A DNA stretch of 64,000 nucleotides, taken from the NCBI GenBank assembly GCA_965261345.1, contig OZ253449.1:1824001-1888000 (forward strand), given 5' to 3'. This document shows positions 4,170 through 48,174 of the stretch, one piece after another. The translations under genes were made by a program, and so were the position numbers. The DNA comes from Chloroflexota bacterium (GTDB lineage Bacteria > Chloroflexota > UBA11872 > VXNJ01). Below the pieces are notes generated by a model. It was given only the letters and a program-made list of their open reading frames with translations. It had not been told where the DNA came from and searched no databases. The first letter of the stretch is position 1. Each line of letters begins with the position of its first letter.

Positions 4170-5447
4170 TTAGGAGCAAATTCGGCTGATCGCTTCCCCG
4201 CCCGGTCCGGCCAAGGTCGCCACATCACCGGAGTTGTTCCATACTGCCCGCCTTCCCCAGGGCTTGAGGTCGCCGATCGCGTCCCCGGAAGCGATCAGAA
4301 AGTTGCCATCAGCGTCCAGACTTGTTCCCGCAGCGAAGGTGTGAGCAAAATTACTCCCCTGGTCGGAAATCTGCCAGCCGGCCAGACTAAAGCCTGGCGG
4401 ACCACCCAATTGCACCCTTTCCGCGCTGGCATCGCAAAAACGGATTTCCAATTGCCCGGACGGGGTCGCTTCCGCTTGAGCGGCTGCGTCGGGTCCGGTG
4501 CTCGCGGTAGGGCCCGCTTCCGGGGCGGAGGTTGCCAAGGGAGCCCTGGTGGATATTGGAATCGGTATCGGGTTTTCCTGGGAAATCTCCTGCTCCGGGC
4601 AGCCGCCTAATATGCGGGCCAGCGCCGCATGCTCGGCGCCATCGGCGGCCAGCCTCCAGCGCAATTTGACCACCACCCAAGCCTCGGCGTAAAAGCAGTG
4701 CGAATCGGCATTTGGCGGAAGCCATTCGGCCGGGTCCTTCTTTCCCTTCGAACGGTTGGAGCTGGCAGATACGGCAATCAGCGAATGCTGGTAGGAAAGG
4801 TCATTGGCGTAGTTCTGGCGTGTTGCCCGGTCCCAGCGGTGTCCACCGGATTCGTGCGCTTCGGCCAACGGCACCAAGTGGTCAACGTCAAACCCGGACG
4901 GATTGCTGGTGACTAGGCCGTCGAATATCGAATACCAGGTTCCGTCGGGCAACCGTTCGCTTTCTACGACCTCGCAGCGGGCGTGGCATCCATCGCCGTC
5001 CTGGTCCTTCCAGTGCGGCCAATCATCGCGGTCGTAGTCGCTGCCCGGATGCTCGGGTTCGATTGCGATTTCCGCCAACAGCGCCCGCGCGGTTGAACCG
5101 CTGCGGTTGGCCACAGCGGTGCCCGGTGGTGCCGCGTCTTCTAAATCGGCCTGATCCGCAATGTCGGTAACCGCGGCCGTGGTTGCTCGATCTACCGTTT
5201 CGCGAGACGGCCCGTTGGAAGTCGATTTCGCGGTTGCGGTTGGCGCGGTGTCAACCGGATCGGTCTGACCTCGAATGTCGGTAATCGCTGCCGCGGTTGG
5301 TCGGCCCGCCACCGATCCCGGGGTGGGCGGCGTTGTCACCGGGTCACAGGACAGGGCAACCGCTGAAAGAAGGATCAGCAGGGCAACGCCCAATTGCCAG
5401 CCGCGGGACAATCGACGGTACCAACTAATAATTGCTATCAACGGCAT
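4170..5447 (-). CDS. Lipoprotein HNH nuclease (DUF1524/GmrSD-C-like) with C-terminal lamin-tail-like domain
   Basis: Signal peptide and lipobox VALSC. HNH core 'DVDHLVPLAEAHESG...NDL...LIAVSASSNRSKGKKDPAEWLP'. LTD-like 'ERVQL...SLAGWQISD...HTF...VWNNSGDVATL'. Start placed at the ATG at 5447. Confidence 0.8.
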   Translation of the reverse strand: MPLIAIISWYRRLSRGWQLGVALLILLSAVALSCDPVTTPPTPGSVAGRPTAAAITDIRGQTDPVDTAPTATAKSTSNGPSRETVDRATTAAVTDIADQADLEDAAPPGTAVANRSGSTARALLAEIAIEPEHPGSDYDRDDWPHWKDQDGDGCHARCEVVESERLPDGTWYSIFDGLVTSNPSGFDVDHLVPLAEAHESGGHRWDRATRQNYANDLSYQHSLIAVSASSNRSKGKKDPAEWLPPNADSHCFYAEAWVVVKLRWRLAADGAEHAALARILGGCPEQEISQENPIPIPISTRAPLATSAPEAGPTASTGPDAAAQAEATPSGQLEIRFCDASAERVQLGGPPGFSLAGWQISDQGSNFAHTFAAGTSLDADGNFLIASGDAIGDLKPWGRRAVWNNSGDVATLAGPGGEAISRICS

Positions 5448-5649
5448 TTCCGGTTGCGGGATTGATCGCGAAATTTGCGATCTTGCGAATTGCGTTCGCG
5501 ACCAAAATCTAGCAATTGCCATATTGGCGATCAATTCGCACCTCAAAATAGCCCAGATTCGCTGCGATTGCAATTTGCCGCCCCTGACCGGATACCCGCC
5601 GGATAGCGGCGTTGGCCAATTGCTCGCGACTGGAACGGTACGAAGCCAA

Positions 5650-6558
5650 ATGGAAATAATCGAGCGCCTGCGCGGTTCAATGCCGGCGATGGTCACCCCG
5701 CTCGGTGACGATTACAAGGCGGATTTGGCGGCCGCGGCGCGCCTGATTGGCTTCTACATCGAATCGGGTTCGCACGGCGTGGTGGTGTTGGGCAGCTCGG
5801 GCGAATTCCAGGGCGTTCGCTACGCCGACCGGGCTGGTCTGTTGTCGGCTGCAGTGGAAGCCGCGGCCGGCCGCATCCCGGTAATAGCCGGCGCCGGTCT
5901 GCCTAATCTGTGGGCAACCATCGACCAGGTAAAGCAGGCTGCCGACTGTGGCGCCGACGCCGCCCTGGTGACACCGCCCTATTACTTTCCGATCGACCAG
6001 GACGCGATAGTGGATTGGTTTACGCGGTTGGTCGGCGCGGTGGATCTTCCAGTTCTCTATTACCACTTCCCGACGATGACCAAACTAGCGGCCAATCCCG
6101 ACACGGTTGGGCGCTTGGCCGATTGCGGAGTGTGCGGTCTAAAGGACTCGGGTGGATCGACCGCTTGGCTGCACGCCGTTCTGGGCCGCGTGGGCGAGCG
6201 TCGCGACTTTCGACTGTTCTTGGGTGGCGACGGGCATTTGCTAGATGCACTAATTCACGGTGCCGATGGTTGCATCGGATTGGCCCAGAATCTGATTCCG
6301 CACATATCGGCCCAACTGTACGAGGCATATTGCGAGGGTGACCTGGGAACTGCGGTCGAACTTCAGCGGCACGCGGTCGAATTTGGCGCCAGGCTGCAAA
6401 CTGGCACCCTGGGACAACCATTCGCCAAAGCCGTGCTGTCGCATATGGGATTGTGCTCACCAGTCGTGGCTCCGCCTATGAAGGCCCTTTCACCGGCCGC
6501 GGCATCGGCCGCATTCGGCCGAGTCGAAAAATATTTGCTGATCCCGACCAGCGCCTGA
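5650..6558 (+). CDS. Dihydrodipicolinate synthase-family aldolase/dehydratase (probably not DapA)
   Basis: 'PAMVTPL', 'GSSGE', 'IPVIAGAG' and Schiff-base Lys in 'GLKDS'. The DapA substrate Arg after the YN(V)P motif is replaced (YHFPTMT). ATG at 5650. Confidence 0.85.
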   Translation: MEIIERLRGSMPAMVTPLGDDYKADLAAAARLIGFYIESGSHGVVVLGSSGEFQGVRYADRAGLLSAAVEAAAGRIPVIAGAGLPNLWATIDQVKQAADCGADAALVTPPYYFPIDQDAIVDWFTRLVGAVDLPVLYYHFPTMTKLAANPDTVGRLADCGVCGLKDSGGSTAWLHAVLGRVGERRDFRLFLGGDGHLLDALIHGADGCIGLAQNLIPHISAQLYEAYCEGDLGTAVELQRHAVEFGARLQTGTLGQPFAKAVLSHMGLCSPVVAPPMKALSPAAASAAFGRVEKYLLIPTSA

Positions 6559-33357: not shown

Positions 33358-34728
33358 CTATTGGAGTTCGCCCTCGGCCGGGAACCGACCGGAAATATCG
33401 GCGCTGGCCCCGGGGGGCAACAGAGCGGCGATTTCGCGCATGATCTTCCAGCTGGCCCAGCTCGCGGCCTGCGAACCGGTCAAGCCAGGCGGACGCCGCA
33501 GGCGAAACGGTTTGCCAAATCGTAAAACGGTTGGCACCGGGTCGGGGCAGGCGAGTTTTGACAGGTCAAGCCGTTCCATTCCCAACACCGCGGCCGGGAC
33601 CACCATCGCCCCCGAGCGCAACGCCAAGAATCCGGCCCCAGGATGCGGGGGTTGCAGGCGGGTATTGCGCGAGCGCCTGCCCTCCGGGAACACGCACACC
33701 GCCTCGCCGTCGACTAAGGCCGCAAGCGCCCGCCGCAGTCCGCCGGTATCACCTCCGTCGCGCCGGGTCGGAATCGCTCGCAAGGCACCGACCGCCCAGC
33801 CGATCAGCGGCCGTTCAAAGAGAGCATCCTTGGCCAAAAAGCGCAGGTGCCGCGGGGCGTGGTGGGCCAGGAAATTTACGTCGGCATTGTGCACGTGACG
33901 CGGAGTGATGATCACTGGCCCGCGGCTGGGCACGTTAGCGGCGCCCTCGATGCGGATCGGATCGCAGTAAAGCCGCAGGTAAACGTCGAAGAATTCGGTG
34001 ACCGCATCCATTAGCAGGGCGTTGCCAAGCGGCCAGTTATCGGAGGCCTGGCAGTTTTTCCAGGCGCGCAGGATTGCCCGGCTGACCGCACGCGCCGGCA
34101 GTTGGTCGGTGTCCAGTTGGAGGGCCCCAGATGGAACTCGCAGCGGTGAACTCGCCCGGTTGCTGTCGAAATCGTCGCGCCGATCGATCTCGGTTTGCAA
34201 CCGGGCCAGCGGCATATGCTGGCCGCCGGCGCGTCTTGCTGACCGCAATCGCTGGGCCCGCACCGCGGCATCAGCGTCCAGATAAACCTTGAGCCCGGCC
34301 TCGGGGCAAACCGTCGTGCCCGCGTCCCGCCCCAACAGCACCGCACCGCCGCCGAGGAGCCCGCGCTGCTTTGGTAAGAGTGCTGCGCGCACCGACTCCT
34401 GTCGGGCAATTAACGGTACGGCTCGCTCGACCTGGTCCAGGTAGAGGTGGGCGCTCGTCGACGGCAGGCCGTGAACCAGCCGGCGACCGTTGATGCGCAA
34501 GGTTGGCCGTGGCCCGTTGCCAAGCGTGACCTGTAGGCTGGCGGCGTATTGAGTGGCCGCCGGTCCCTGGCCTGGGTCGCCGCTGGCCCTTAGGCATTCG
34601 TAGGCGACCGCACGGTAGATGAGGCCGGTATCGATCAGTGGTAGGCCCAGGCGATTGGCTACCGTTCGCCCGACCGTGGTCTTACCCGACCCTGATGGGC
34701 CGTCGATGGTAATGATCGGGTTCGGCAT
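33358..34728 (-). CDS. cmk: Cytidylate kinase fused to 1-acyl-sn-glycerol-3-phosphate acyltransferase (Cmk-PlsC)
   Basis: Cmk motifs IDGPSGSGKTT, DTGLIYRA, GRDAGTTVCP and RRDDFD. PlsC motifs HX4D (HVHNAD), 'FLAKDALF' and 'FPEGRRS'. Single uninterrupted frame. Confidence 0.9.
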   Translation of the reverse strand: MPNPIITIDGPSGSGKTTVGRTVANRLGLPLIDTGLIYRAVAYECLRASGDPGQGPAATQYAASLQVTLGNGPRPTLRINGRRLVHGLPSTSAHLYLDQVERAVPLIARQESVRAALLPKQRGLLGGGAVLLGRDAGTTVCPEAGLKVYLDADAAVRAQRLRSARRAGGQHMPLARLQTEIDRRDDFDSNRASSPLRVPSGALQLDTDQLPARAVSRAILRAWKNCQASDNWPLGNALLMDAVTEFFDVYLRLYCDPIRIEGAANVPSRGPVIITPRHVHNADVNFLAHHAPRHLRFLAKDALFERPLIGWAVGALRAIPTRRDGGDTGGLRRALAALVDGEAVCVFPEGRRSRNTRLQPPHPGAGFLALRSGAMVVPAAVLGMERLDLSKLACPDPVPTVLRFGKPFRLRRPPGLTGSQAASWASWKIMREIAALLPPGASADISGRFPAEGELQ

Positions 34729-34849
34729 CTGCTCTGGCTTCCAAGAACTTTTTGTAATTCGCAGCGGGGTGGCCCTGATTTTCCCAAGCCGCGCCTCAAT
34801 TCGATTCATCGAAGCGCCAAATATCATTGCCCTGAGTGATATACGCATC

Positions 34850-36472
34850 TTGGTGGCGCAATTGCAGTCCAATGTTTCGCGCGAAATAGCGCGCTATCTA
34901 CGGGGTCTTGGCGTACAGCGCGCCTACGGACTGCCCGGCGGCGAAGTCACCCACATAATCGACGCCATGGTGGCGGCGGGAATCGAATGGGTGCTGGTTC
35001 ACCATGAAGCGGCGGGAGCGCACATGGCCGACGCTGAATCGCAGCTGACCGGACGCCCGGCGGTCTGCGTATCGACGGTCGGACCGGGCGCGACCAATCT
35101 GGTAAACGGGGTCGCCAACAGCTTTCTGGAACGGAGCCCGGTAATCGCCTTGGTCGGCGAATTTGACGACGCCGAGCGGGCGACCACCGTTCACATGAAC
35201 GTCGATCTGCGGGCCCTGTTCGACCCGATCAGCGCCTATGTTGAGCGCGTCGACGCCGGCAACCTGGCCACGGTTTTGGCCCATACCGACAATGCCCTAC
35301 GAGCGCCGGTTCCCGGACCGGTGGCGTTGTTGATTTCAGCCCGTGACCAACGCCGCCCGGTTGACCAGTTGCAGCTGCCCGGTCCGGTCAGTGCGACCAC
35401 GCCCAAATCGGGTGCTGGCGAATTGGGCCGCCAATTTCGCAATGCCAGCGGTGCCAGTCTGGTGCTTGGCGTAGGCGCCCGGGAAAACGGATTGATCGAT
35501 GCGGTCCGGACCCTGGCGGCGGCCCATGATTTGCCGGTGGTAATTACACCCAAGGCCAAGGGTTGGATGCCAAGTGACGACCCCCGGTTTGGCGGAGTGT
35601 TGGCCTCATATGGTTCAAGCGGAGCCGAGCACCTGCTGGCCGAGTCCGATCTGATCGTAGCCGTCGGCCTTGATGGCACCGACCTAATCCGCCCCTGGAG
35701 ATTCGCCGCGCCGCTGCGATTGGGGGTCGCTGATCGCTACGATCAATCGGTCCCGGGTCGGCAGTTGATCTGCGACCCGCTGTTGACCCTGAGCGAATTG
35801 TGCGAGGTTGAATTACCTAGCTTCGGCGGCCTGGGGCGGGCCGCCGGCGCGCGCGCCGCCGCCGAGTGTGCCCGCACCACCGGCACGCTGGCGGCGCGCG
35901 CGTTGCCCGAGCATATGCACGGCGGGCTGGACCCAATCGATGCCCTGCGGGCGATCCGCCGGGCAGCCCCGCGGGAGGCGATTGCCACCTGCGATGTAGG
36001 GATGTTCAAGCTGGCAATATGCCAGTACTGGGACTCCTACCAGCCTGGCTCCTTTCTGGTCTCCAATGGGTTATCGACGATGGCCTACGGCCTGCCGGCG
36101 GCCAGCGCGGCGGCCTTGGCCCGGCCCGGACACCCGGTCGTCGCGCTGCTCGGCGACGGCGGACTGCTGATGGGAGCGGGCGAACTGGAGACTCTTTCCA
36201 GGCTGGATCTGCCGGTCACCGTGCTGGTGGCGGTCGATTCCTCAATGGCGCTAATTCGGCTCAAGGCCGAGGTGGACGGCCTGATCGAACAACCCAACGA
36301 CTTTCGGCCGGTTGACTATGTGGCGCTGGCCCGGTCGATGGGATTGGGTGGCCGACGGGTGAAAGACCTTGACCAGCTGCAGGCGGCGGTGGTGGACGGA
36401 ATCGCCGGAAATCGGCCGAATCTGATCGAGTTTCCGGTCGACTACTCGATCTACCGGAATATGGGCGGGTAA
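34850..36472 (+). CDS. Thiamine-diphosphate enzyme, acetolactate synthase-like
   Basis: 'YGLPGGE', 'HHEAAGAHMAD', 'GPGATN', 'DVG', 'SNGLSTMAYGLPAA' and ThDP motif GDGG. No ilvN/ilvH subunit adjacent. Start approximate. Confidence 0.88.
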   Translation: MVAQLQSNVSREIARYLRGLGVQRAYGLPGGEVTHIIDAMVAAGIEWVLVHHEAAGAHMADAESQLTGRPAVCVSTVGPGATNLVNGVANSFLERSPVIALVGEFDDAERATTVHMNVDLRALFDPISAYVERVDAGNLATVLAHTDNALRAPVPGPVALLISARDQRRPVDQLQLPGPVSATTPKSGAGELGRQFRNASGASLVLGVGARENGLIDAVRTLAAAHDLPVVITPKAKGWMPSDDPRFGGVLASYGSSGAEHLLAESDLIVAVGLDGTDLIRPWRFAAPLRLGVADRYDQSVPGRQLICDPLLTLSELCEVELPSFGGLGRAAGARAAAECARTTGTLAARALPEHMHGGLDPIDALRAIRRAAPREAIATCDVGMFKLAICQYWDSYQPGSFLVSNGLSTMAYGLPAASAAALARPGHPVVALLGDGGLLMGAGELETLSRLDLPVTVLVAVDSSMALIRLKAEVDGLIEQPNDFRPVDYVALARSMGLGGRRVKDLDQLQAAVVDGIAGNRPNLIEFPVDYSIYRNMGG

Positions 36473-36512: not shown

Positions 36513-38462
36513 ATGAACAATTTCCCCGCGTCGAGGGCAACGGTTGCGCCTGAATCGCCCACCCGGCTTCTGGCAAGGGTGGCAGCAGTCGGCCTGGCGT
36601 TGGTGCTCGCCCTGCTGATTGGACCAGGGCCGGTCGGTGCCAATTCGAAAATTGCCTACGATCCTGACCTGCGCATCCGCTTTGAGGGAGTCGGCAACGG
36701 TCACGGAGTCGGCATGTCGCAATGGGGGGCCTACGGCCGGGCGCTGGCCGGCCAGAGAGCCGACGAAATAATCCACGCCTACTACACCGACGTGGCAATT
36801 GAACAGCGCAACCTGGACGAGCAGGAGATCCGCGTCCTGGTATCCAGCGGCTATCGCGCCCCCGCAGTTGATGCTTCGTACGCTGGAACCGGCGGCCTGC
36901 GCGGGCAGATATTTGCGTGGGGCGGACCTTGGGAAATCGCCGGATTGACGGTGCCGATCGAGGCCGGCGGCCGGATTGAGCTGTTGTCATATCCCGGGGA
37001 GGCCAAGTATCTGGTGCAGGTATTTAATTCAGGCAACGTGCAATTGAGCCAGTTCGAGATGTACCGCTGGATCCGTATCAGGCCGCTTTCGCCGGCGACC
37101 ACCTTCCAGGTGTGGTACAAGGAAACCGCCCCGGTACCAGGAGGCGCGGGCGCGATCTATTACGATGTCTATCGTGGTGGCCTGCGTCTGATCGTCCGCG
37201 GCGACGGAACCGTCGACACCGTCAACGAAGTACCGATCGAGCAGTACCTGCGCGGGGTTGTCCCGGTAGAGGTAGTCCACGACTGGCCGATCGAAGCGAT
37301 TAAGGCCCAGGCCATGGCTGCGCGGACCTTCGCCCTGGACCGGATCGCTGGCGGCGGGGTTGACTGGGATACTGGCGATACGGTCTTCTCCCAGGCATAT
37401 CTGGGCGCCAACGCCGAGCAGGAAAACACCGATCTTGCGGTCAGCGACACCAGGGGTCTGGTAATAACCCACGCCGGATTGCCGATCAACGCGCTCTATT
37501 TTTCGAGCTTTGGCGGTCGCACCGAGAATTCCGAAGAAGTTTTCGGCGGGGCCGAACCCTGGCTCCGATCGCGTTCCGATCTGGATGAAAACGGACAGCC
37601 ATTTGACGCGGTGGGCCCCTGGGGAAGCTGGTCGACGCCGGAATTTCCAATGTCGCAGTTGGCGCAGGCGTTTGCCCAGAAATCCAATACCGACGTCGGG
37701 GAGTTGGTTGCGGTCGACTTTTCCGACCGATCGTCGTCGGGTGCGGTGCGCAATGTAACGATCACCGGCAGCCTGCGTGAAATCGTGGTGACTGGCGAGT
37801 TTTTCATCCAGGTCTTCAATGTGCGGACAGCCCGTTCATCCGGGATCCTCTACAGCCACAATTTCGAAGCTGTGCTGCCCGAACAGCCCCCGCCGGTCGT
37901 CGGACCGGGCCCCAGTCCGGCGCTGGGCCCAACAATTCCAGGCGGCGCCTATTTCTATCCGCAGACCGGCCATTGGATTGGCGGGCCGATATTGGACTTC
38001 TATCTAGGCAATGGCGGGGTCGCAGCATTCGGCCTGCCGCTGACCGGGCAATTGCCTGAGCATGGACGGATAGTTCAGTACTTTGAAAAGGCGCGGATTG
38101 AATTGCCGCCGGGCCCGGCCGCCGGGCCCGGCGGCATAACCCTGGGGCTATTGAGCCAGGAACTTCTCGGGGAAACAGAATTCGTCCCAGATTTGCGGCC
38201 ACTGGGTGAAGGGGACCTGCGGTTTGCCGAAACGGGCTTTAGCGTGCGCGGCGTTTTGCGCCAATTTTTCAACGACAACGGCGGGGTTTTTCGCTTTGGC
38301 TACCCGATTTCGCCCAGTTACCAATCCGGCCGGCTCACAGTGCAGCACTTCCAGCGGGCGACCATCAATTTCCCTTCCGATCGAGAGGATCTTATGGCCG
38401 TTACCAACGTTGGTTCACAGCTGCTGCAACAGCGCGGCTGGTTCGGCGGGTTGCCCGCCTAG
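36513..38462 (+). CDS. SpoIID/LytB-domain lytic transglycosylase with C-terminal YFPETGH-type surface repeats
   Basis: 'GNGHGVGMSQWGA', 'NEVPIEQYLRGVVPVEV...EAIKAQAMAARTFA' and 'DTVFSQAY'. Two repeats: 'YPQTGHWIGG...FGLPL...VQYFEKAR' and 'FAETGFSV...FGYPIS...VQHFQRA'. Confidence 0.9.
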   Translation: MNNFPASRATVAPESPTRLLARVAAVGLALVLALLIGPGPVGANSKIAYDPDLRIRFEGVGNGHGVGMSQWGAYGRALAGQRADEIIHAYYTDVAIEQRNLDEQEIRVLVSSGYRAPAVDASYAGTGGLRGQIFAWGGPWEIAGLTVPIEAGGRIELLSYPGEAKYLVQVFNSGNVQLSQFEMYRWIRIRPLSPATTFQVWYKETAPVPGGAGAIYYDVYRGGLRLIVRGDGTVDTVNEVPIEQYLRGVVPVEVVHDWPIEAIKAQAMAARTFALDRIAGGGVDWDTGDTVFSQAYLGANAEQENTDLAVSDTRGLVITHAGLPINALYFSSFGGRTENSEEVFGGAEPWLRSRSDLDENGQPFDAVGPWGSWSTPEFPMSQLAQAFAQKSNTDVGELVAVDFSDRSSSGAVRNVTITGSLREIVVTGEFFIQVFNVRTARSSGILYSHNFEAVLPEQPPPVVGPGPSPALGPTIPGGAYFYPQTGHWIGGPILDFYLGNGGVAAFGLPLTGQLPEHGRIVQYFEKARIELPPGPAAGPGGITLGLLSQELLGETEFVPDLRPLGEGDLRFAETGFSVRGVLRQFFNDNGGVFRFGYPISPSYQSGRLTVQHFQRATINFPSDREDLMAVTNVGSQLLQQRGWFGGLPA

Positions 38463-39577
38463 ACGTAGTCGGCTATCGGTGTGGCCACCAGGGCGTGGTC
38501 GGGAATACTGGTCTCGTGGCTTCCCTGGGCAGGATATTTGAAGACCTTGCCCTCGTAGTTGACCAGCGTGGCGTATTCGGAGTCGAGATTGACTAGGCGG
38601 TTGGGGGCAACCGTCATCTTGCCGCCCCCGCCGGGGGCGTCGATTACGAATTTGGGCACCGCAAATCCGGTGATGTTTCCCTGCAGGTGATTGATGATGT
38701 CGAGCCCGGTCTGGATGCTGGTGCGGAAATGGTGGGTTCCCTTGACCAGGTCGGCCTGGTAGAGGTAGTAGGGCTTCACCCGCATCTTGAGCAGTCCAAG
38801 CATCAATTCCTTCATAACCGCGGGGTCGTCGTTGACACCCTTTAACAAGACCGTTTGGCACCCCAGCGGCACCCCGGCGTCGGCCAACCGGGTGCAGGCG
38901 GCATGGGCTTGGGCGGTCAATTCGCGCGGGTGGTTAAAGTGCGTATTTACGTAGAGCGGGTGGTATTTGCGCAATATGTCGCACAGCTCGGGAGTTATTC
39001 GGGCGGGCAATACGCAAGGCAGTTTCGATCCGATTCGAATCACCTCGATGCTCGGAATCGCCCGCAGATTGGAAAGAATGCGGTCCAGGTGCTGATCTGA
39101 AAGCAGCAGCGGGTCGCCGCCCGAGAGCAGCACGTCGCGTACCTCGGGATGTCCGCGCAGGTACTCGAATACCGCTTCCATTTCCGACCAGCGCGGGACC
39201 GGGTATTTGCCGACCTTGCGCTTGCGGGTACAGAAGCGGCAGTAAATGGCACAGGTGTAGGTGACCGTGAACAGGACGCGGTCGGGGTAGCGGTGGGTAA
39301 GGTGCGGAACCGGACTGTCGTCGCCGTCCTCGCCGAGTGCATCCTCCATGTAATAGGTGGGATCATCCAATTCCGCTTTGGAAGGAATGACCTGCTTCCA
39401 GATCGGGTCGTCGCGCTCTTGAATTAGCGCACTGTAGTAGGCGTTGGAGAAAAACGGGTAAAGCTTGCGAATGGAATCCACTTCATCAGATTCAAGGCCG
39501 TCGGCGCCGGGAACGTCCTGCCCACGCCGTAGGCTCTGGCGCATCTCCTGCTTCCACTGGGGAGCTGCTTTGATCAA
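38459..39577 (-). CDS. kamA: KamA-family radical SAM/PLP enzyme, lysine 2,3-aminomutase type
   Basis: 'HRYPDRVL', CxxxCxxC (CAIYCRFC), 'LSGGDPL', 'THFNHPRE', 'QTVLLKGVND', 'YYLYQAD' and PLP-lysine 'DAPGGGGK'. Confidence 0.9.
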   Translation of the reverse strand: MIKAAPQWKQEMRQSLRRGQDVPGADGLESDEVDSIRKLYPFFSNAYYSALIQERDDPIWKQVIPSKAELDDPTYYMEDALGEDGDDSPVPHLTHRYPDRVLFTVTYTCAIYCRFCTRKRKVGKYPVPRWSEMEAVFEYLRGHPEVRDVLLSGGDPLLLSDQHLDRILSNLRAIPSIEVIRIGSKLPCVLPARITPELCDILRKYHPLYVNTHFNHPRELTAQAHAACTRLADAGVPLGCQTVLLKGVNDDPAVMKELMLGLLKMRVKPYYLYQADLVKGTHHFRTSIQTGLDIINHLQGNITGFAVPKFVIDAPGGGGKMTVAPNRLVNLDSEYATLVNYEGKVFKYPAQGSHETSIPDHALVATPIADYV

Positions 39578-39676
39578 TTAGGGCCTGCTTTTGCGGATTG
39601 GGCCAGGGAGGTCGGCGGTCGGCATATGGTGCACCGCATGGAACCGGCAACTTGTAATTTTCGCCAAATCCGCTGC

Positions 39677-41131
39677 CTACAACGGCGATTGCGGATCGAT
39701 CGCTACCGGTGCCATGACCGCGTCGGCCATCCCATGCAGGATCTTGGACGAATCGGGGCAGGCGGTGGCCAAAATGCCGCAAAACGTAACCTTCTGTCCG
39801 TCATCGATGTAATACGGCGAGAAACGCGATCGGACCCGGGCCCGCCGCAGCGTGTTGTGGCTCCGGTCAAACCAATCAACCTCGAAGCGCCGGCTGGCCA
39901 AATAGGGCTGAAGAACGTGTGGGGACCGGGCGAAGCTGTCTTGGGCCAGGGCAAGCGATTCGGCCCACTGCTCGGCCGGCACGTCGTGACCGATGGTCAC
40001 CCCGCGCGAGCCCCAAGCCTGGGGCGAATAACCGGACGGTTTGAGCACCAACCTTCGCTGGCGCTGGGTCGCGGCGGCCAATTCGCCCCAGCGGCGGACC
40101 TTGAGCGACCCGCATTGCAGCGGTGGGTCGATCGCCGCAAACGGCGGCAGCGGAGTCGGGTCGACTACCCACGTTGGCGGGAGATGACTGGCCAGGATCG
40201 CGTGTCGCTCACGGCCGAGCTGGGTTTGCCAAAAATTGCGCAATCCGGGATTGTGGAATAGCGCCAACAGCATCTTTTCTTCCAGCGGCGCCCGCGGCGG
40301 CGGCGTGATTGCGACAGCGCGCGCCTGCATCGCCGCCAGCATCTGGTCGGTCCCGGGTATGTTTTCCAGATCGAAGAGTTCGAAAAATCGGTAGATAATA
40401 TCCACTTGCTGGCACGCCCCGCGGTGCTCCAGCGTTACGCCGCTCCCCGGGTAGCCTAATTCTTCGGGGGCGGCCAGCGCGCAGCGCAGGCCCAACCGGC
40501 CAAGCTCGCTGGCCAGGGCGGCCATCTCCGGCCGGTAGGCTGCCGATTCATCCGAGACTACGAAGGCTACAAAAGGGTCCGGGCCGGGGGCCTGTCGCTG
40601 CAGCGCGTCTTTTAGGGTTTGGGCCAGCGGGGCGCCGGCGGTGCTCAACCCGGCGGCCTGATACCCGGCCCGCAGCGATTGCAATACGCCCAACCCACCG
40701 GGGACCGAATCCAGTTCGGTGGCAATGATCGATCCGTCTTCGGCCAACATCAGGTCGGGGCGAATGACCATAGGAAATTTCCCTCGCAGGCGGTTGCGGC
40801 GTGCCAGCGAGACCACCTTGTCGTCCTTACCGGCATCGAGCAAACGAGCTGGCCAGGCGGGGAGATTGCCACGCACGCTGTCCTGATACAAGCGACCGGC
40901 GGCGCGATAGAAAGCGGCCAGGTGTTCGCCCAGACCGGCGATCGTTTCCAGGGTAGCCGACGAGATTCCGATTGGGCGCGGCGAGAGCCGAAATGGGGCT
41001 CGGTTGGCGCCATCGGCGATCCCGGTCTCGCCGTAGAGCCCGCTGGCGGGCAGCGATTGATCGAGATCGGCGACCAATTCGCCGGGCGACCGACAGGCTG
41101 GCGCGGGGCTAGTCTGCCGCAAAAATATCAA
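39677..41131 (-). CDS. Uncharacterised ATP-grasp amide ligase (glutathionylspermidine synthetase/circularly permuted ATP-grasp-like)
   Basis: 'IRPDL...ATELDSVPGG' (R-x-D...E-x-D/N metal motif), 'IYRFFELFD', 'EEKMLLALF', 'VLKPSG....WGSRGV' and 'VLQPY'. Start uncertain. Confidence 0.65.
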   Translation of the reverse strand: MIFLRQTSPAPACRSPGELVADLDQSLPASGLYGETGIADGANRAPFRLSPRPIGISSATLETIAGLGEHLAAFYRAAGRLYQDSVRGNLPAWPARLLDAGKDDKVVSLARRNRLRGKFPMVIRPDLMLAEDGSIIATELDSVPGGLGVLQSLRAGYQAAGLSTAGAPLAQTLKDALQRQAPGPDPFVAFVVSDESAAYRPEMAALASELGRLGLRCALAAPEELGYPGSGVTLEHRGACQQVDIIYRFFELFDLENIPGTDQMLAAMQARAVAITPPPRAPLEEKMLLALFHNPGLRNFWQTQLGRERHAILASHLPPTWVVDPTPLPPFAAIDPPLQCGSLKVRRWGELAAATQRQRRLVLKPSGYSPQAWGSRGVTIGHDVPAEQWAESLALAQDSFARSPHVLQPYLASRRFEVDWFDRSHNTLRRARVRSRFSPYYIDDGQKVTFCGILATACPDSSKILHGMADAVMAPVAIDPQSPL

Positions 41132-41380
41132 ATCCTACAGAGGCAACTGGCAATTTGCCAACCGGATTGTATTCGCTTGCTAGTTGAGGCTGACGTCCGC
41201 GATCGCCGATAATGCGGGGAGTAGTCGGCCGGTTTCGACCATTGCTCTGTCCGGTATTTCGCCGACTGATTCCTTCAACCGACGCAGCAAGGCCCAGCTT
41301 CTAGGACTTTCGCTCGACTGGCGTCTGCGATCCGCCCAGATTCGGGCGACGCCGGGCGCGCCGTAAAACAACTAGGGACC

Positions 41381-43453
41381 ATGACCAAGCCATTCCCCAT
41401 CGTACGGCGATACCTTGCCGCCGCGCGCCCACCGCTGGCGCTGGCGTTCTTTGCGGGGCTGGTGATTGCCCTTGCCGGTTGCGAGTTCTTTGTCGCGACC
41501 GTCGCCCCCACCCCCACTCTGGTCACTTCGGCCAGTTCGTCCTCGCGTCCGCTGGTGGCTGTCGAGCGTGGAACCGTCGAACAGGCTATTCGGGCCACCG
41601 GGAGGATCGTGGCGCGCGAACGCGAGGACCTTTACTTCCTTTCCGGCGGTCGCATCAAGGGAGTTACCGTACGCCAGGGCGACCTGGTTGAACCGGGCGA
41701 TGTATTAGCCGAGCTCGAAACTGGAAATCTCGCCTCCCAGGTGGCCGCCGCGCAGGAGAGTTTTGAAACCGCCTCGCTGCGGGTCAAAGCCGCCCAGCAG
41801 GCGCTAAACGACGACCGATCGAACATCCAACAACAACTGCTCGCGGCTCGCAACGATGTGATCCGAAAGCAGGAAGCGATCGATTTCGCCCTTGATGGCG
41901 GCGACCCTGATGCGGTTGCAACCGCCCGTGCGCAAGTGACCGCGGCCCAGTTGGCGGTCACCGAGTCCCAGATCAATCTGTCGGTGTTGCAACGATCGCC
42001 GGAGGACATCCGGGAACGGGTCGAATTGGAACTTGGGAGCCGGCGCGACATCCTGGCCGATCTGCAGCGCGAGCTGGCCAATCTCGTATCCGCTGGCGCG
42101 CCAACTGAGCTTGAAGTCAACGACCGGGCGCGAACCCGCCTGGAGAACCTGCGCAGCCAGGTGGCCAATGCCCAGGCCAACCTGCAGATCGCCAAGGACA
42201 ACCTGGACCGGGCGATTAACGGAGCCAGCGGCGACGACCTAGAACAGGCCCAGCTGATCTTTCGGCGGGCCGAGATCAACTATGAAAACGCCCTGGAGCG
42301 CAACTTTACAGGTGATCAGCGCGAGCAGACCCAGATATCGTACGATCTGGCCCGGTTGGCCTACGAACGGGCGGTAAATCCGGGCGACGAAACCGATGTG
42401 GCCAAGGCCCGGGTCGCCGTACAGCAGGCCGAGGCCAACCTGGAACGGGCGCGCGATCTGCTCAGCGATGTCCCTGGAAACGGCAGCGATGCGATCGCTC
42501 TGGCTTATCTGGTTGACCAGGTCCAATCTGAACACCGCAGCGAAATCGCCGCTGCGCAGTTGGCCGTGCTCGGTGCCCAGCGGGCGGTTGACGAGTACGA
42601 AGTCGAATTGGAAAACGTGAGCGGCGGCCGGGGATCCTCCGAGCAGCGGGCCGCCCAATCTGGCCTGGTAAGAGCTCAAAACGCATTGCAACAGGCCCAG
42701 ATCCGGCTCTCCGATTTGCTAAATCCGTCCGATTCGGCAATATCGATCGCCATGAACGATCTGAGCTTGGCGATCGCCCGCCTGGAGAATCTCGAGCGGC
42801 GGGAAGAGCAGTTCGTCCAGGGCGATTCGCAGAAGGACATCGACCTGACGATCACCAGCAACAATTTCGAGCAGGCCCGGATCCAACTCGAGCGCCTGCA
42901 GGCGCAGACCATCGAGAACTTGATCATTGCCCCGTTTGCGGGCGAAGTCACTTTCGTAAAGGGCCGCGCCGGCGACCAGATCCAGGCCTATCAGGAGATT
43001 GTTGGGCTGTCCAATCCACAGTTTCTGGTGCTTGAATCGCTGGTCCCTGAGGTTGAATTTGAGGATCTCTCAATCGGCCAGATCGTCGATGTTCAGCTCG
43101 ACGCCTTTCCCGGTCGCGATTTCCAGGGCCGAGTGACTTCGCTACCGCGCAGCATCGTCTCCAATACCGGCCAGGCGATCACCGTCCCTGAGACCGAGAT
43201 CGAGGTCGATTGGGGAACGGCGGGAGTAGAACTGGGAATGCTGGCGCGCCTGAAAATCACCGTCCAGGTCAAAAACGACGTGTTGAAGGTTCCGCTCGGG
43301 GCGGTACGGTCGGTCAACGCCCGTGACTTTGTCGAGACCATCGTCGACGGTCAACGCCGTAGCCTGCAGATTACGACCGGTATTTCTTCCGACACCGAGA
43401 TTGAGATCGAAGCTGGCCTTGAAGAGGGACAAGAAATCTACGCGTCGCTTTAG
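41381..43453 (+). CDS. Lipoprotein periplasmic adaptor (MFP) with an extremely long coiled coil
   Basis: Lipobox LAGC; lipoyl halves 'GRIKGVTVRQGDLVEPGDVLAELE' and 'IIAPFAGEV' about 400 residues apart; C-terminal 'VLKVPLGAV...ITTGI...EIEAGLEEG'. Confidence 0.88.
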   Translation: MTKPFPIVRRYLAAARPPLALAFFAGLVIALAGCEFFVATVAPTPTLVTSASSSSRPLVAVERGTVEQAIRATGRIVAREREDLYFLSGGRIKGVTVRQGDLVEPGDVLAELETGNLASQVAAAQESFETASLRVKAAQQALNDDRSNIQQQLLAARNDVIRKQEAIDFALDGGDPDAVATARAQVTAAQLAVTESQINLSVLQRSPEDIRERVELELGSRRDILADLQRELANLVSAGAPTELEVNDRARTRLENLRSQVANAQANLQIAKDNLDRAINGASGDDLEQAQLIFRRAEINYENALERNFTGDQREQTQISYDLARLAYERAVNPGDETDVAKARVAVQQAEANLERARDLLSDVPGNGSDAIALAYLVDQVQSEHRSEIAAAQLAVLGAQRAVDEYEVELENVSGGRGSSEQRAAQSGLVRAQNALQQAQIRLSDLLNPSDSAISIAMNDLSLAIARLENLERREEQFVQGDSQKDIDLTITSNNFEQARIQLERLQAQTIENLIIAPFAGEVTFVKGRAGDQIQAYQEIVGLSNPQFLVLESLVPEVEFEDLSIGQIVDVQLDAFPGRDFQGRVTSLPRSIVSNTGQAITVPETEIEVDWGTAGVELGMLARLKITVQVKNDVLKVPLGAVRSVNARDFVETIVDGQRRSLQITTGISSDTEIEIEAGLEEGQEIYASL

Positions 43454-43493
43454 CGACGCCATCACCCCCTGCGCGCGGGCCAGGTAGCGCCCG

Positions 43494-46352
43494 ATGTTGT
43501 TTCCGATGGCGGTATTTGCGGCAAAAAGGCTGCTGCATAAGAGCCAGTTGATCATCGCCACCGTTCTGGGCCTGATCATTACGGTGACGCTGGTTACTGC
43601 GGTGCCGGTATTTGCCGACGGAATGTCGGAATTTCTGCTCCAACGCGAGCTGACCGAGCCCAACACCGAGCGCCGCCAACCCAGTTCTTCGATTCTGTTG
43701 CGCCATTTCTCACGCCCGCAGCAAAATGAACCGCCGACCGCGGTCGAAGACTATTTGCTGGCCGACAATTTCTTCGCCCACCGGATGCCGCAATTGACCA
43801 GCATGGACGAGATCGGGCAGGTTTCCTACCTGCAAACCGACGTGCACCCGGTTCTCCCGTTTGAGGCCTCGATCCAGGCCGGCCGGCGCCAGCGGACCCT
43901 CAAATATGCTTGGTTTGCAACCGCTTCCGATCTGCTCGATAACATCATGTTCATCGAGGGCAGACCGGCTTCCTCGGAGATCGGGTCAATCGAGGTCGAT
44001 GGGGCCGAGTCCCTTCTGCTCGAGGCATCGGCATCCAACGACCTGCTCGACAAATTCGGGTACCTGGTGGGCGACCGGATAAAGCTCATCTACGAGGACG
44101 AGAACACCGAGGAAGAGCACCCGATCGTCTTTGACATCGTCGGACGCTGGGTGCCAACCGAACCCGAAAATCGCAGCTACTGGTTCTACAACCCGGATTC
44201 GACCTATAACCGCGGTGGCTTCGTGGTCAATCGCGACGTCTTGCTCGAGACCCTGGTGGGGAGGTATCCGGGGATTTTCTACGAGGCGACCTGGTACTCG
44301 AATTTTGATCCGGCCTCGATCCGGGCGTCCAATTACCGGGCGGTGGCCGGTGGGCTGGTGACGCTGCGGGCCAGCACCAATTCGATTCTCCCGGGAACCA
44401 AGCTGGACTATTCGCCACAAGACATCATCGTCCGCTTCAACGAAAAGCTGTTCTTTTTGAAACTGTTGCTATTCATCCTGGCGGCGCCGGTGGTGGCGAT
44501 CATCCTCTACTACGTCAGCCTGACGGCGGGGATGGTGGTGGACCAGCAACGCAATGAGATCGCGGTGCTCAAGAGCCGTGGGGTAGGGACCCATCAGATT
44601 GTTGGGGTTTACATAATGGAGGGGTTGTTGGTGGCCGCGGTGGCGCTGATCATAGGACCCTTGCTGGCGCTGGGCCTGGCCCAGGTGATCGGCAAGACGT
44701 ACACCTTCCTGGTGTTTACCAATCGTGAAAACCTTCCGCTGATGCTTACCCAGCAGCACTACCTGTACGCTGCCGGCGCGGTGCTGCTGGCGATGCTGGC
44801 AACCCTTGCACCGGCGATCGCAGCGGCCCGGCTCTCGGTTGTCGAATTCAAGCAGGATGTCTCCCGGACCCTGCGCAAACCGCTTTATCAGCGCTTCTTT
44901 CTGGATTTCCTGATCGTTGGACTCGTCATCTACGGATACATGACGCTGCGCAACCGGGACTCGCTGCTGAGCTTTGGCCCCAGCGGCGAGTTGTTCTCCG
45001 ATCCGCTGCTGGTGATCATGCCGGTGCTGTTCATCTTTGCCCTGGCGCTGCTGTTCCTGCGCTTTATTCCCTACGTGGTCGCTTTGCTGGCTTTTGCGGG
45101 GAACCGGTTCTGGGGAGTTGGCATTCACCTGGGTCTGCGCCAGATCGGGCGCAGCCCCGGACAGTACACACGGCTGGTGCTGTTGCTAATACTCACCTTT
45201 GCACTTGGAACGTTTTCCGCCTCGATGGCCGCCACCATCGATCGCAACATTTCCGACCGCGCCTACTATTCAGTCGGCTCGGACATTCTTTTTGAGGAAT
45301 CGGGCTATTGGGATGCCGACAACGAGGTCTGGATCATTCAACCGGCCGATCTGCACGCCAAGGCGGTCGACGCCAACGGCGAACCAATGCTGGAACAGTT
45401 CGCGCGTCTCTGGCACGATTCGGACGCCCACTTCGTCCCGCCGGGTCGCACCCAGGCGGAAGTCATAAATGTCTACGGGGTCGATCCGATCCCGTTTGCC
45501 AAGACCGTGTGGTGGCGGTCCGATTTTTCCCTCCACCACCTCAATTCGATGATGAACGCGCTAGCCGGCGACGAGCGCGCGCTCCTAGCCGACCAGTCGT
45601 ACTTTGGCGACGAATTGCTGTTGCGCCCGGGCGATCCGCTCACGATCCGGTTTTCGCAGACCGATTTGGACTTTTACATCGCTGGGTGGATCGACGATTT
45701 TCCGACCCATTACCCTGAACGCGGCCCGTACGTGGTCGCCAACCTTGACTACGTCCATCGCAACATCGGCGAGAGCCCCTGGGACATCCTCGGGGTTCCG
45801 GCCGGGGACAACCAGGCACCCGAAATTGCCGATGCAATCTGGGAACTGAGCATCGACCTGCTCCATTACAACGTCGCCCAGAATTTGATCCAGGACTCGC
45901 GCGCCGACGCCACCCAGACCGGTACCTTCGGAATCCTGACCGTCGGGTTCATCATCTCGACCCTGTTGACCCTGCTCGGTTTTCTGCTCTACTCGTTCCT
46001 CTCGTTTAGGCGACGCCTACAGGAATTTGGGGTACTGCGGGCGATGGGGCTCTCAGTTAGACAGATGATCAACCTGTTCATGTTCGAGAATGGATTCCTG
46101 ATCGGCATGGGCACTCTGGTCGGCACCCTGCTTGGGATATTGACCGGAAATCTTTTCATTCCCTTCCTGCAGCTGTCGGCCGACCAATTTGCCGACACCC
46201 CGGCTTTCGTGATCGAGACCGCTTGGGGGGACATCGCCAAGATCTTCCTGGTCTTGGGGGTCGTCCTGGCGGTGGCGGTGCCGGTTTCGATTTGGATGCT
46301 GCGGCGAATCCGCATTCACGAGGCGATGAAGTTTGGAGATGAAACCGGATGA
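43494..46352 (+). CDS. Large duplicated FtsX-like ABC permease (952 aa)
   Basis: Two FtsX-type repeats ('QQRNEIAVLKSRG' and 'RRLQEFGVLRAMG'), each with a large extracytoplasmic domain. Confidence 0.9.
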   Translation: MLFPMAVFAAKRLLHKSQLIIATVLGLIITVTLVTAVPVFADGMSEFLLQRELTEPNTERRQPSSSILLRHFSRPQQNEPPTAVEDYLLADNFFAHRMPQLTSMDEIGQVSYLQTDVHPVLPFEASIQAGRRQRTLKYAWFATASDLLDNIMFIEGRPASSEIGSIEVDGAESLLLEASASNDLLDKFGYLVGDRIKLIYEDENTEEEHPIVFDIVGRWVPTEPENRSYWFYNPDSTYNRGGFVVNRDVLLETLVGRYPGIFYEATWYSNFDPASIRASNYRAVAGGLVTLRASTNSILPGTKLDYSPQDIIVRFNEKLFFLKLLLFILAAPVVAIILYYVSLTAGMVVDQQRNEIAVLKSRGVGTHQIVGVYIMEGLLVAAVALIIGPLLALGLAQVIGKTYTFLVFTNRENLPLMLTQQHYLYAAGAVLLAMLATLAPAIAAARLSVVEFKQDVSRTLRKPLYQRFFLDFLIVGLVIYGYMTLRNRDSLLSFGPSGELFSDPLLVIMPVLFIFALALLFLRFIPYVVALLAFAGNRFWGVGIHLGLRQIGRSPGQYTRLVLLLILTFALGTFSASMAATIDRNISDRAYYSVGSDILFEESGYWDADNEVWIIQPADLHAKAVDANGEPMLEQFARLWHDSDAHFVPPGRTQAEVINVYGVDPIPFAKTVWWRSDFSLHHLNSMMNALAGDERALLADQSYFGDELLLRPGDPLTIRFSQTDLDFYIAGWIDDFPTHYPERGPYVVANLDYVHRNIGESPWDILGVPAGDNQAPEIADAIWELSIDLLHYNVAQNLIQDSRADATQTGTFGILTVGFIISTLLTLLGFLLYSFLSFRRRLQEFGVLRAMGLSVRQMINLFMFENGFLIGMGTLVGTLLGILTGNLFIPFLQLSADQFADTPAFVIETAWGDIAKIFLVLGVVLAVAVPVSIWMLRRIRIHEAMKFGDETG

Positions 46353-47296
46353 GGGACTTCACTTCCGAGATTGAAGTTGGCCAATCGCTGGTGGTTTGCA
46401 CCGGGTTGGTCAAGATCTATAAGGTCGCCGATCTGGAGGTGGTGGCCCTGCAGGGATTGGATCTCTCAATCGGTCGTGGTGAACTGATGGCCATCATCGG
46501 CAACAGCGGTTCGGGCAAGTCGACCTTGCTAAACATCCTCGGGGGGTTGGACCGGCCGTCGGCTGGAAGTTGTCGGGTTGGCGATCTGGACCTGGTCAAC
46601 TGCTCCGAATCCGACATCGTCTTTTACAAGCGTCATATTGCCGGTTTTGTCTGGCAACAGAGTTCGCGCAACCTGATCCCTTACATATCGGCGTTGGAAA
46701 ACGTCGAGACGCCGATGATCTTCTCGGGAACATCGGGGCGGATGCGTCGCGAACGGGCTCGGGAGTTGCTGGTTACCGTCGGCCTGGCCGATCGCATGGA
46801 TCACCGCCCCGGAGAACTCTCGGGCGGCCAGCAGCAGCGGGTGGCGATCGCGGTTTCGCTGGCCAACAACCCCGACCTGCTGTTGGCCGACGAACCAACC
46901 GGCGAGGTTGACACCGAGACCGCACACCTGATCTACGATCTGTTCCACACCCTCAATCGCGAGCGCGGCCTGACCGTGATCGTGGTCTCACACGATCGCC
47001 AGATCGCCAACCAGGTTGACCGGGTGGTGGCAATTCGCGACGGGCGGACCTCGACTGAGACCGTGCGCCGGATTTCTGGAGACCAAACCGAGGGCGTATC
47101 GCACGAGGAATATGTAATCGTCGACGATGTAGGCCGGCTGCAGATTCCACAAGAGCACCTGGAAGAGGCCGGAATTTCCGGTCGTGCGGTGGTCGAATAT
47201 GAACAGGGTCGAGTTGTGATCAAACCGGCCGGCGACCAGGGAGATGCTCGCGGACGCAACGCGCCCGATCGCGGGCGTTTCCTGGGGGTCCGGTGA
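46349..47296 (+). CDS. ABC ATP-binding protein (LolD/MacB type) with C-terminal AbrB/MazE-like domain
   Basis: [17 protein letters not shown] and LADEPTG; tail '[41 protein letters not shown]'. Confidence 0.9.
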
Positions 47297-48174
47297 TGGA
47301 CCAAAGGAAATCGGCCAACGGCGTCCTGGTTGAGCTGCGGTCAGCTAGCCGCTATTACCACGAGGGCGGAGTCAACGAGGTCCGGGCGGTTGACCAGGTC
47401 AACTTGGAAATTGGCCGACAACGTTTCGTCGCGCTGCGCGGCCGCTCCGGATCGGGAAAAACCACCCTCCTGAATCTGATCGGCGGGCTCGACAAGGTCA
47501 CCGACGGGCAGATCCTTTTCGAGGGCCAGTCGCTGGCGGACCTATCCGACAACCGGCTAACTGAGATTCGCCGTCATTCGATGGGATTCGTGTTCCAGAC
47601 CTTTAGCCTGTTGCCGGTGCTTTCGGCTTTTGAAAACGTCGAGCTGACCATGCGCATTGCCGGTATGGCGCCAGCCGAACGGGCCATACGAGCGCGCGAA
47701 CTACTCACCCTGGTTGGCCTGCGCACTCGAATGCACCATCGGCCGTTCGAGCTCTCCGGCGGCGAACAGCAGCGGGTCGCAATCGCCCGCGCACTGGCCA
47801 ATCAACCGACCCTATTAATTGCCGATGAACCTACTGGATCGTTGGATTCGGTGACTGGAATCGAGATCGTCCTGCTATTCCGGCGGGTCGTGGAGGAGCA
47901 GGGCCTCACCGTTTTGATGGCGACTCATGATCCTTCACTCTCGCAATTTACCGACGACACATGGTTGATGGAAGACGGTCGGCTCAGCCATGCCGAGGGG
48001 CCGCTGGACATTGACCTGCCCGACCTGATCCAGCACGTCGAATTCGACGACCCGCTGCTCAATCAGGAAAAGTCGGTCCACGATGCAACCCGTGCGCTCG
48101 ACGAGGTTGCCCCGCCGCGAGCGATTCCAGTGATCGGCGGTACCGACCAGTTCCGGCGGCCCGAAAAACCTTAA
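47293..48174 (+). CDS. Second ABC ATP-binding protein (LolD/MacB type)
   Basis: GRSGSGKTT, LSGGEQQR and IADEPTG; GTGA overlap with the upstream stop. Confidence 0.93.
   Translation: MMDQRKSANGVLVELRSASRYYHEGGVNEVRAVDQVNLEIGRQRFVALRGRSGSGKTTLLNLIGGLDKVTDGQILFEGQSLADLSDNRLTEIRRHSMGFVFQTFSLLPVLSAFENVELTMRIAGMAPAERAIRARELLTLVGLRTRMHHRPFELSGGEQQRVAIARALANQPTLLIADEPTGSLDSVTGIEIVLLFRRVVEEQGLTVLMATHDPSLSQFTDDTWLMEDGRLSHAEGPLDIDLPDLIQHVEFDDPLLNQEKSVHDATRALDEVAPPRAIPVIGGTDQFRRPEKP

Follow-up and report, generated by a model that had tools for sequence, protein, structure and literature searches.

A gene pair encoding a KamA-type aminomutase and an unnamed ATP-grasp-superfamily ligase recurs across bacterial phyla and may direct the synthesis of a beta-lysine amide

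Results

A Chloroflexota bacterium carries, in the 64,000-nucleotide stretch of DNA analyzed here (contig OZ253449.1, positions 1,824,001 to 1,888,000; hereafter the window), a gene for a KamA-type lysine 2,3-aminomutase directly downstream of a gene for a ligase that belongs to no named family, and with moderate confidence we propose that the two genes constitute an operon directing a small-molecule pathway of two steps that makes an amide of beta-lysine. The kamA-like gene (38459..39577, minus strand) begins with a TTG codon and encodes 372 amino acids, which a KamA-family hidden Markov model (HMM) and an alignment to the structure 2A5H identify as a short AblA-type lysine 2,3-aminomutase. 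The ligase gene (39677..41131, minus strand) encodes 484 amino acids as listed, with a predicted structure of the circularly permuted ATP-grasp kind that resembles eukaryotic glutathione synthetase. As described in the first-pass annotation of this DNA, which had been made from the sequence alone and had proposed a beta-lysine ligation system, the two open reading frames (ORFs) are co-oriented, lie 99 nt apart (spacer 39578..39676, minus strand) and are flanked by oppositely oriented neighbors. On the minus strand the spacer was free of terminator-like sites, and no Rfam match was obtained at E ≤ 1 in the region 38000-41700 or at gathering score in eight related loci (8 of the 80 loci described below). 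A spacer without a terminator or Rfam element is consistent with co-transcription of kamA and the ligase gene.

Recurrence of the pair in other genomes, which the first-pass annotation had named as a check on its proposal, was confirmed. Species-representative genomes were scanned for the ligase, yielding 591 confirmed relatives, of which the best 80 loci were retained and searched by tblastn with the window KamA. Of these 80, 43 had kamA directly downstream of the ligase gene in the same orientation; 74 loci were decidable in having at least 2 kb of downstream sequence, and of these 43 were linked and 31 unlinked, the other 6 loci being undecidable. In all 43 the kamA match starts on the same strand 37-755 nt past the end of the ligase match, and these loci represent six phylum-level groups, namely Nitrospirota (28), Chloroflexota (8), Bacillota (3), Armatimonadota (2), Nitrospinota (1) and Acidiferrobacteraceae (1). 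In quick maximum-likelihood trees of the two proteins (n = 76 for the ligase), the linked state was spread over most of the ligase diversity, and as a label it required 6 changes, whereas shuffled labels required 25.5 on average. Several groupings were common to the ligase and KamA trees: the window with locus L002, the Bacillota trio, the Armatimonadota pair, and locus L010 of Nitrospirota with L024 of Acidiferrobacteraceae. These parallel groupings, including that of L024 with L010, suggest that the ligase-kamA pair has been inherited and transferred as a unit.

The surroundings of the ligase were compared by all-against-all clustering of 1086 ORFs from the ligase loci, with representatives of 46 recurrent families and 31 individual neighbors annotated by Pfam or NCBIfam. 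Among these, no recurrent partner was found beyond kamA and a glutaredoxin-like gene described below, all other neighbor families being restricted to a single lineage. Since the neighbors, the glutaredoxin-like gene aside, differ from lineage to lineage, it is the ligase-kamA pair alone that recurs. No acetyltransferase domain was detected among the neighbors in the window or the annotated neighbors of the related loci, and the latter also held no KamDE-type or nonribosomal peptide synthetase (NRPS) domain. In addition, a Pfam scan of 51 ORFs from the 64 kb of the window, nearly all of at least 150 amino acids, returned no GNAT/AblB-like, EpmA-like, elongation factor P (EF-P), KamDE or NRPS domain, in agreement with the first-pass statement that the usual users of beta-lysine (KamDE, AblB, EpmA and NRPS modules) are missing from the window.

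The assignment of the first enzyme was then based on family models and on residues aligned to a solved structure. The window KamA (P0001) passed the KamA-family model TIGR00238 (282.4 bits, cut-off 199.2), and its best equivalog was the AblA-type lysine 2,3-aminomutase model TIGR03820, with 434.5 bits against a cut-off of 525.4. It failed the models for glutamate 2,3-aminomutase (TIGR04368; 382.9 bits, cut-off 650), arginine 2,3-aminomutase (325 bits, cut-off 600) and EpmB (TIGR03821; 232.2 bits, cut-off 369.3). Against the C. subterminale lysine 2,3-aminomutase 2A5H it scored 351.7 bits, and in the alignment C109/C113/C116 of the CxxxCxxC motif correspond to C125/C129/C132, the pyridoxal phosphate (PLP)-binding lysine K320 to K337, and R118, D276 and D313 to R134, D293 and D330, the lysine-binding residues of 2A5H. 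The two motifs pointed out in the first-pass annotation are both present, YQAD holding the equivalent of D293 and VIDAPGGGGK the equivalents of D330 and K337 (2A5H numbering). The equivalents of CxxxCxxC, R134, D293, D330 and K337 were invariant in 35 of 35 ligase-linked KamAs, for all of which AblA was the best model. The reported lack of C-terminal zinc-binding cysteines likewise held up. Of the residues C268, C375, C377 and C380 that form the zinc site of 2A5H, the first is replaced by Asp in the window KamA and the stretch with the other three is absent, the alignment ending at 2A5H residue 366 and no Cys occurring past residue 349.

Both side-chain-binding positions are Asp in the window KamA; glutamate 2,3-aminomutase is expected to carry Lys/Asn at these positions. 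Retention of both residues that hold the epsilon-ammonium group argues for free lysine, and not an epsilon-acylated conjugate, as the most likely substrate. The same acidic residues had been taken to speak against EpmB as well, and this part of the argument failed, as in E. coli EpmB the two acidic sites are occupied by Asp and Glu; that protein is without DAPGGGGK. An EpmB identity of the window KamA is instead ruled out by the HMM score and by an identity of 36% to the E. coli protein. As a separate observation, four long KamA homologues (P0137, P0155, P0162 and P0189; 516-575 amino acids) appeared, by eye, to repeat the C-terminal half of the barrel in degenerate form and look like internally duplicated aminomutases.

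By sequence, the ligase belongs to no named family. The only Pfam match of the window protein (P0002) was to CP_ATPgrasp_2 (PF14403), at E = 0.015 and 14.7 bits against a cut-off of 32, over residues 167-280; NCBIfam gave no match, and neither did the Pfam model GSP_synth (PF03738). Among 30 relatives, CP_ATPgrasp_2 matched five at E ≤ 1 and GSP_synth matched four weakly (best 2.6e-7), and no match to GSH_synth_ATP or GSH_synthase at E ≤ 1 was seen in the 30 members. An hhalign comparison with E. coli Gss gave a probability of 0.11 and no alignment, a weak test in that the template was a single sequence. The motifs listed in the first-pass annotation were all found, i.e., R124-P-D126, E139-L-D141, L363-K364-P365 and W373-G-S-R-G377, and are invariant or nearly so in the 30 relatives, with R124, D126, E139, D141, K364 and the glycine-rich WGSRG loop invariant. 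The family is large, comprising at least 2873 clusters at 90% identity among 8000 candidates scored, and 421, 1093 and 2091 representatives at 50% identity for E ≤ 1e-30, 1e-10 and 1e-3, respectively, and the names shown for its members were all 'hypothetical protein'. No fused forms were found among proteins of 848-2420 amino acids, which is weak evidence, and the extensions of six members of 520-587 amino acids contained no Pfam domain.

The predicted structure placed the ligase more closely. An AlphaFold (AF2) model built on the 30-member alignment had a predicted local distance difference test (pLDDT) score of 88.6 and a predicted template modeling (pTM) score of 0.89, and a Foldseek search of the Protein Data Bank (PDB) with this model gave 64 matches at E ≤ 0.001. 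The 32 matches listed were without exception ATP-dependent amide ligases, of kinds represented by glutathione synthetase, Cp1B, circularly permuted (CP)-ATP-grasp, YjfC/YgiC, GspS and trypanothione synthetase, with ranks 1-27, all at probability 1.00, occupied by glutathione and homoglutathione synthetases, Cp1B and 3N6X. The human, potato and yeast glutathione synthetases matched at E-values of 4.9e-17 to 3e-14 with template modeling (TM) scores of 0.59-0.70, followed by the E-64 ligase Cp1B (9CJN; 4.9e-14), soybean homoglutathione synthetase (5.2e-14), the circularly permuted ATP-grasp protein 3N6X (4.6e-13), YjfC (4.8e-10), GspS (4.2e-9), YgiC (5.8e-9) and trypanothione synthetase (1.5e-7). 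In the ESM Atlas, eukaryotic glutathione synthetase clusters appeared at 0.96, listed after unnamed bacterial clusters. On the predicted structure, the ligase is a probable ATP-dependent amide ligase of the ATP-grasp superfamily with a circularly permuted fold, and its closest structural resemblance is to eukaryotic-type glutathione synthetase, with GspS further off. The first-pass description of a GspS-like ATP-grasp enzyme was thus correct as to the superfamily and not as to the nearest relatives (5e-17 to 5e-14 for glutathione and homoglutathione synthetases versus 4e-9 for GspS). Of the outcomes that the first-pass annotation had said would refute its proposal, neither of the two that can be judged computationally, namely ligase homologs unlinked to kamA elsewhere and a fold other than ATP-grasp, was observed. 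Overall, that earlier interpretation is partly supported, being right in its core of a recurrent KamA with an ATP-grasp-superfamily ligase, imprecise on the ligase's nearest relatives and, as to the chemistry, a proposal.

A third gene recurs within the module in part of the sample. A glutaredoxin-like ORF of 72-117 amino acids with a CPxC motif and a thioredoxin fold was found inside the ligase-kamA module in 32 of the 80 loci, in three phyla and two gene orders: between ligase and kamA in 29 of the 31 Nitrospirota loci and in the Nitrospinota locus, and after kamA in both Armatimonadota loci (e.g., L046:9395-9733, L057:9388-9726, L065:9576-9914, L049:9407-9622, L067:10478-10699 and L072:10362-10607, with 26 further loci). 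The models matched were glutaredoxin and GST-N, and in NCBIfam YruB-like, mycoredoxin and Uxx-star, all below their cut-offs. No such gene was present in the window module or in any Chloroflexota or Bacillota locus of the sample. In 6 of the 10 copies shown, all from Nitrospira-type loci, the protein ends in a conserved acidic C-terminal tail closing with HPSCRIN/H; the short proteins of Nitrospinota, Armatimonadota and locus L027 lack this tail.

Other neighbors were restricted in their distribution. A protein combining a CxxCxxCC part with an MprF C-terminal-like domain (LPG_synthase_C) is encoded divergently upstream of the ligase at L037:2757-4262 (minus strand) and in 17 further Nitrospirota loci, and the CxxCxxCC part alone in six loci, e.g., L054:6980-7600 (minus strand); this protein may be a component of the system or plain synteny. 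In four loci without kamA (three of Latescibacterota and one of Gemmatimonadota), the gene directly after the ligase, on the same strand, encodes a LarE-type ATP-dependent sulfur transferase (319.5 bits, cut-off 150); it lies at L011:9308-10282 and also in L028, L038 and L079. In the window, the ligase gene is divergent from a HlyD-like gene (41381-43453, plus strand), beyond which lie FtsX-like and ABC ATPase genes, and this HlyD-like, FtsX-like (952 amino acids) and ABC ATPase cluster extends over 41381-48174 (plus strand). Parts of it recur in the Chloroflexota loci L001, L002, L006 and L031, of which L006 and L031 are without kamA, and it is probably lineage synteny outside the module. At the other end, a gene for a SpoIID-domain protein (36513-38462, plus strand) is convergent with kamA and overlaps its stop by 4 nt.

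The ligase and HlyD-like genes are separated by a divergent intergenic region (41132..41380) that probably holds a promoter. Two overlapping minus-strand sigma-70-like sites, each with 9 of 12 matches, lie at 41161-41124, and the region as a whole holds three such sites as compared to 0.9 ± 1.0 in shuffles, which is weak evidence. An alternative start for the ligase is the second TTG, at 41122, which would give 481 amino acids; because an AGGA lies upstream of it and a 94% identical relative (P0003) starts there, this start is the more likely one. The remainder of the window is ordinary housekeeping DNA of about 62% G+C, encoding Der, PlsY, a Cmk-acyltransferase fusion, ArgS, GroEL, UvrB and Icd, and the nearest relatives were proteins of Chloroflexota metagenome-assembled genomes (MAGs). 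The fusion places cytidylate kinase and PlsC-type acyltransferase domains in one ORF (33358-34872, minus strand), adjoined by PlsY and Der. Elsewhere, a GmrSD_C restriction-endonuclease ORF (4170-5696, minus strand) overlaps an opposite-strand ORF of the DHDPS family (5275-6558); one or both of these ORFs have probably been called too long.

Discussion

In the pathway that we propose, the KamA-type radical S-adenosylmethionine (SAM)/PLP enzyme would convert free L-lysine to beta-lysine, a step well supported by homology. The ligase would then use ATP to activate a carboxylate, and the resulting acyl phosphate would be coupled to an amine; beta-lysine would be one of the two partners and a small soluble beta-lysine amide the product. 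Among the structural neighbors of the ligase, the amine is Gly for glutathione synthetase, beta-Ala for homoglutathione synthetase and spermidine for GspS. Cp1B, which takes part in making the fungal product E-64, is described as a small-molecule amide ligase that stands alone and works independently of NRPS, adding an amino acid to epoxysuccinate (PMC12568646). Since in these close structural neighbors the acid is a peptide or a dicarboxylate and the amine is small, by analogy beta-lysine is more likely to be the incoming amine than the acid. As to the product, our leading guesses are an AblB-independent compatible solute and a glutathione-like thiol, both of which would be special cases of the two-step pathway.

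Several observations weigh against a beta-lysine amide pathway. First, the window KamA falls below the AblA equivalog cut-off, as do all but 1 of 34 ligase-linked KamAs (L033, 585.5 bits), and its substrate and stereochemistry are therefore read from residues. Second, a PDB search by sequence, with a profile of 30 ligase relatives, returned chance matches alone (E ≥ 1.2). Third, the 80 loci are the top ones by similarity and are rich in Nitrospirota (31) and Poribacteria (20), so that 43 of 74 is not a population estimate of linkage. Fourth, kamA was not found within 8 kb in 31 of the 74 decidable loci, made up of Poribacteria (18), Latescibacterota (3), Chloroflexota (3), Verrucomicrobiota (2) and one each of Nitrospirota, Bacillota, Gemmatimonadota, Sericytochromatia and an unclassified lineage. 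In Poribacteria this holds for all 18 of 18 decidable ligase loci. Finally, a Nitrospira MAG (L030:8001-10300) has kept the ligase and the glutaredoxin-like gene with a DCD-like gene directly following and no kamA, which looks like lineage-specific loss. Given the 31 unlinked loci and L030, the ligase may not depend on beta-lysine.

Two comparisons bear on these unlinked ligases. When 41 kamA-linked ligases were compared with 29 unlinked ones, setting aside six rows with less than 2 kb of downstream sequence and ligase ORFs shorter than 400 amino acids, 82 positions conserved at 95% or more were common to both groups and no position was group-specific, which argues for one activity in linked and unlinked ligases. 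In addition, two KamAs that NCBI assigns to Poribacteria (P0223 and P0237) are of the short form, share 57% and 53% identity with the window KamA, score 479 bits on the AblA model and nest inside the ligase-linked KamA clade in the quick tree. This nesting makes it plausible that genomes with an unlinked Poribacteria ligase carry kamA elsewhere.

If the beta-lysine amide is a compatible solute, the ATP-grasp ligase would take the place of AblB and an acyl or aminoacyl group would mask an amine of beta-lysine. We regard this as possible, though on the unlikely side. The AblA-like character of KamA in 35 of 35 linked cases would fit it, as would the lack of an AblB/GNAT gene beside the module in the window and among the annotated neighbors, the self-contained nature of the pair amid housekeeping genes, and the apparent origin of several carriers as marine or sponge-associated MAGs. 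However, no osmotic-stress transporter or regulator recurs among the annotated neighbors of the module, many Nitrospira carriers look like freshwater or soil MAGs, and both the expense of one ATP per molecule and the glutaredoxin-like gene would be left unexplained.

A glutathione-like low-molecular-weight thiol, formed by adding beta-lysine to gamma-glutamylcysteine or glutathione, is in our estimation a somewhat more doubtful form of the same beta-lysine amide pathway. The nearest folds to the ligase are those of glutathione and homoglutathione synthetases, the latter of which adds beta-alanine, a CPxC glutaredoxin-family gene sits within the module in three phyla and two gene orders, and four loci have a LarE-like sulfur transferase gene after the ligase. 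Against this, the glutaredoxin-like gene is missing from the window and from all Chloroflexota and Bacillota loci, no gamma-glutamylcysteine ligase domain was detected among the annotated recurrent neighbors or the scanned window ORFs, none of the 30 ligase members matched GSH_synth_ATP at E ≤ 1, and the glutaredoxin-like protein could have another role. In its specific form, where beta-lysine would replace or extend the C-terminal Gly (gamma-Glu-Cys-beta-Lys or glutathionyl-beta-lysine) and the glutaredoxin-like protein would be a dedicated redoxin, we hold the idea very tentatively.

The ligase might alternatively place beta-lysine on a protein or peptide, in an EpmA-independent, EF-P-like modification or a modification of an amino-group carrier or tail, and we judge this improbable. 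EpmA and EpmB set a precedent for a KamA-family enzyme working with an ATP-dependent ligase, Iyer et al. in 2009 reportedly proposed CP-ATP-grasp relatives as peptide-tag ligases, and the acidic HPSCRIN tail of the Nitrospira glutaredoxin-like proteins could be a substrate. The tail, however, does not occur in Nitrospinota, Armatimonadota or L027, the window has no glutaredoxin-like gene at all, and EpmB is a distant relative of the KamA (36% identity, 232 bits against 369). Protein modification is the less likely because neither EF-P nor any other possible target recurs among the 80 loci and the nearest solved structures all act on small molecules. That the adjacency is meaningless, or that the substrate of the ligase has nothing to do with the KamA product, is very improbable, for although the 31 unlinked loci and the kamA-free L030 would fit it, the same-strand adjacency at 37-755 nt across six phylum-level groups whose neighbors are otherwise unrelated, the parallel groupings of the two trees and the spread of linkage over most of the ligase tree with far fewer changes than in shuffles all speak against it.

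The module of KamA and ligase resembles several known systems in part. As in AblA/AblB, which makes the methanogen osmolyte N-epsilon-acetyl-beta-lysine, the first enzyme is AblA-type and an adjacent second gene would derivatize beta-lysine via an amide. In contrast, the partner here is predicted to be an ATP-dependent ligase of the glutathione synthetase fold and not a GNAT acetyltransferase, and the KamA is short, without the C-terminal zinc region and below the AblA cut-off; with no adjacent GNAT gene, an AblAB identity of the module was rejected. EpmA/EpmB, responsible for beta-lysylation of EF-P, similarly joins a KamA-family aminomutase to an ATP-dependent ligase that uses beta-lysine, as the ligase here would. 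EpmA is a class II lysyl-tRNA-synthetase paralogue and not an ATP-grasp enzyme. The window KamA fails the EpmB model, neither epmA nor efp was among the 51 scanned window ORFs, and an EpmAB identity of the module was also rejected, there being no aminoacyl-tRNA synthetase-like ligase among these ORFs and the KamA being far from EpmB.

On the side of the ligase, eukaryotic-type glutathione and homoglutathione synthetases (2HGS, 8FBZ, 1M0W, 3KAL) are the best structural matches, aligned over about 500 columns, and homoglutathione synthetase adds a beta-amino acid. Unlike them, the ligase family here is bacterial and kamA-linked, shares 13-16% identity with them and has no Pfam GSH_synth or PDB profile match. 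GspS, YgiC, YjfC and CP ATP-grasp type 2 (3N6X) belong to the same fold superfamily, and some relatives of the ligase have weak Pfam matches to them, whereas the window ligase is below both Pfam cut-offs and hhalign did not align it to Gss. The ligase also differs from the GspS family in having no amidase domain and, apparently, neither of the alpha-E and transglutaminase partners that go with the CP ATP-grasp/GspS class. Sequence membership in GSH_synth, GSP_synth or CP_ATPgrasp_2 was considered and found for none. Cp1B (9CJN), described as a stand-alone amide ligase, is a close structural match that is fungal, is 15% identical and belongs to another pathway.

To our knowledge, beta-lysine has few fates, and these are fermentation, acetylation to an osmolyte, modification of EF-P and antibiotic assembly. 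In the portions of the full-text literature covered by our searches, no account of a kamA-ligase module was found, and a module of kamA with an ATP-grasp-superfamily ligase is probably undescribed, its novelty lying in what would be beta-lysine derivatization with a new class of second enzyme. If correct, this would add a further beta-lysine route, by way of a family that is unnamed or called 'hypothetical protein' in every database consulted. The carriers of the ligase family include environmentally important and hard-to-culture groups such as Nitrospira, Nitrospina, sponge-associated Chloroflexota and Poribacteria, and Nitrospira and Nitrospina are nitrite oxidizers. The identity of the product would name a new metabolite, be it a thiol, an osmolyte or something else, and would annotate hundreds of protein clusters. 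Should the product prove to be a thiol, the main nitrite oxidizers and many Chloroflexota would have a redox buffer of their own.

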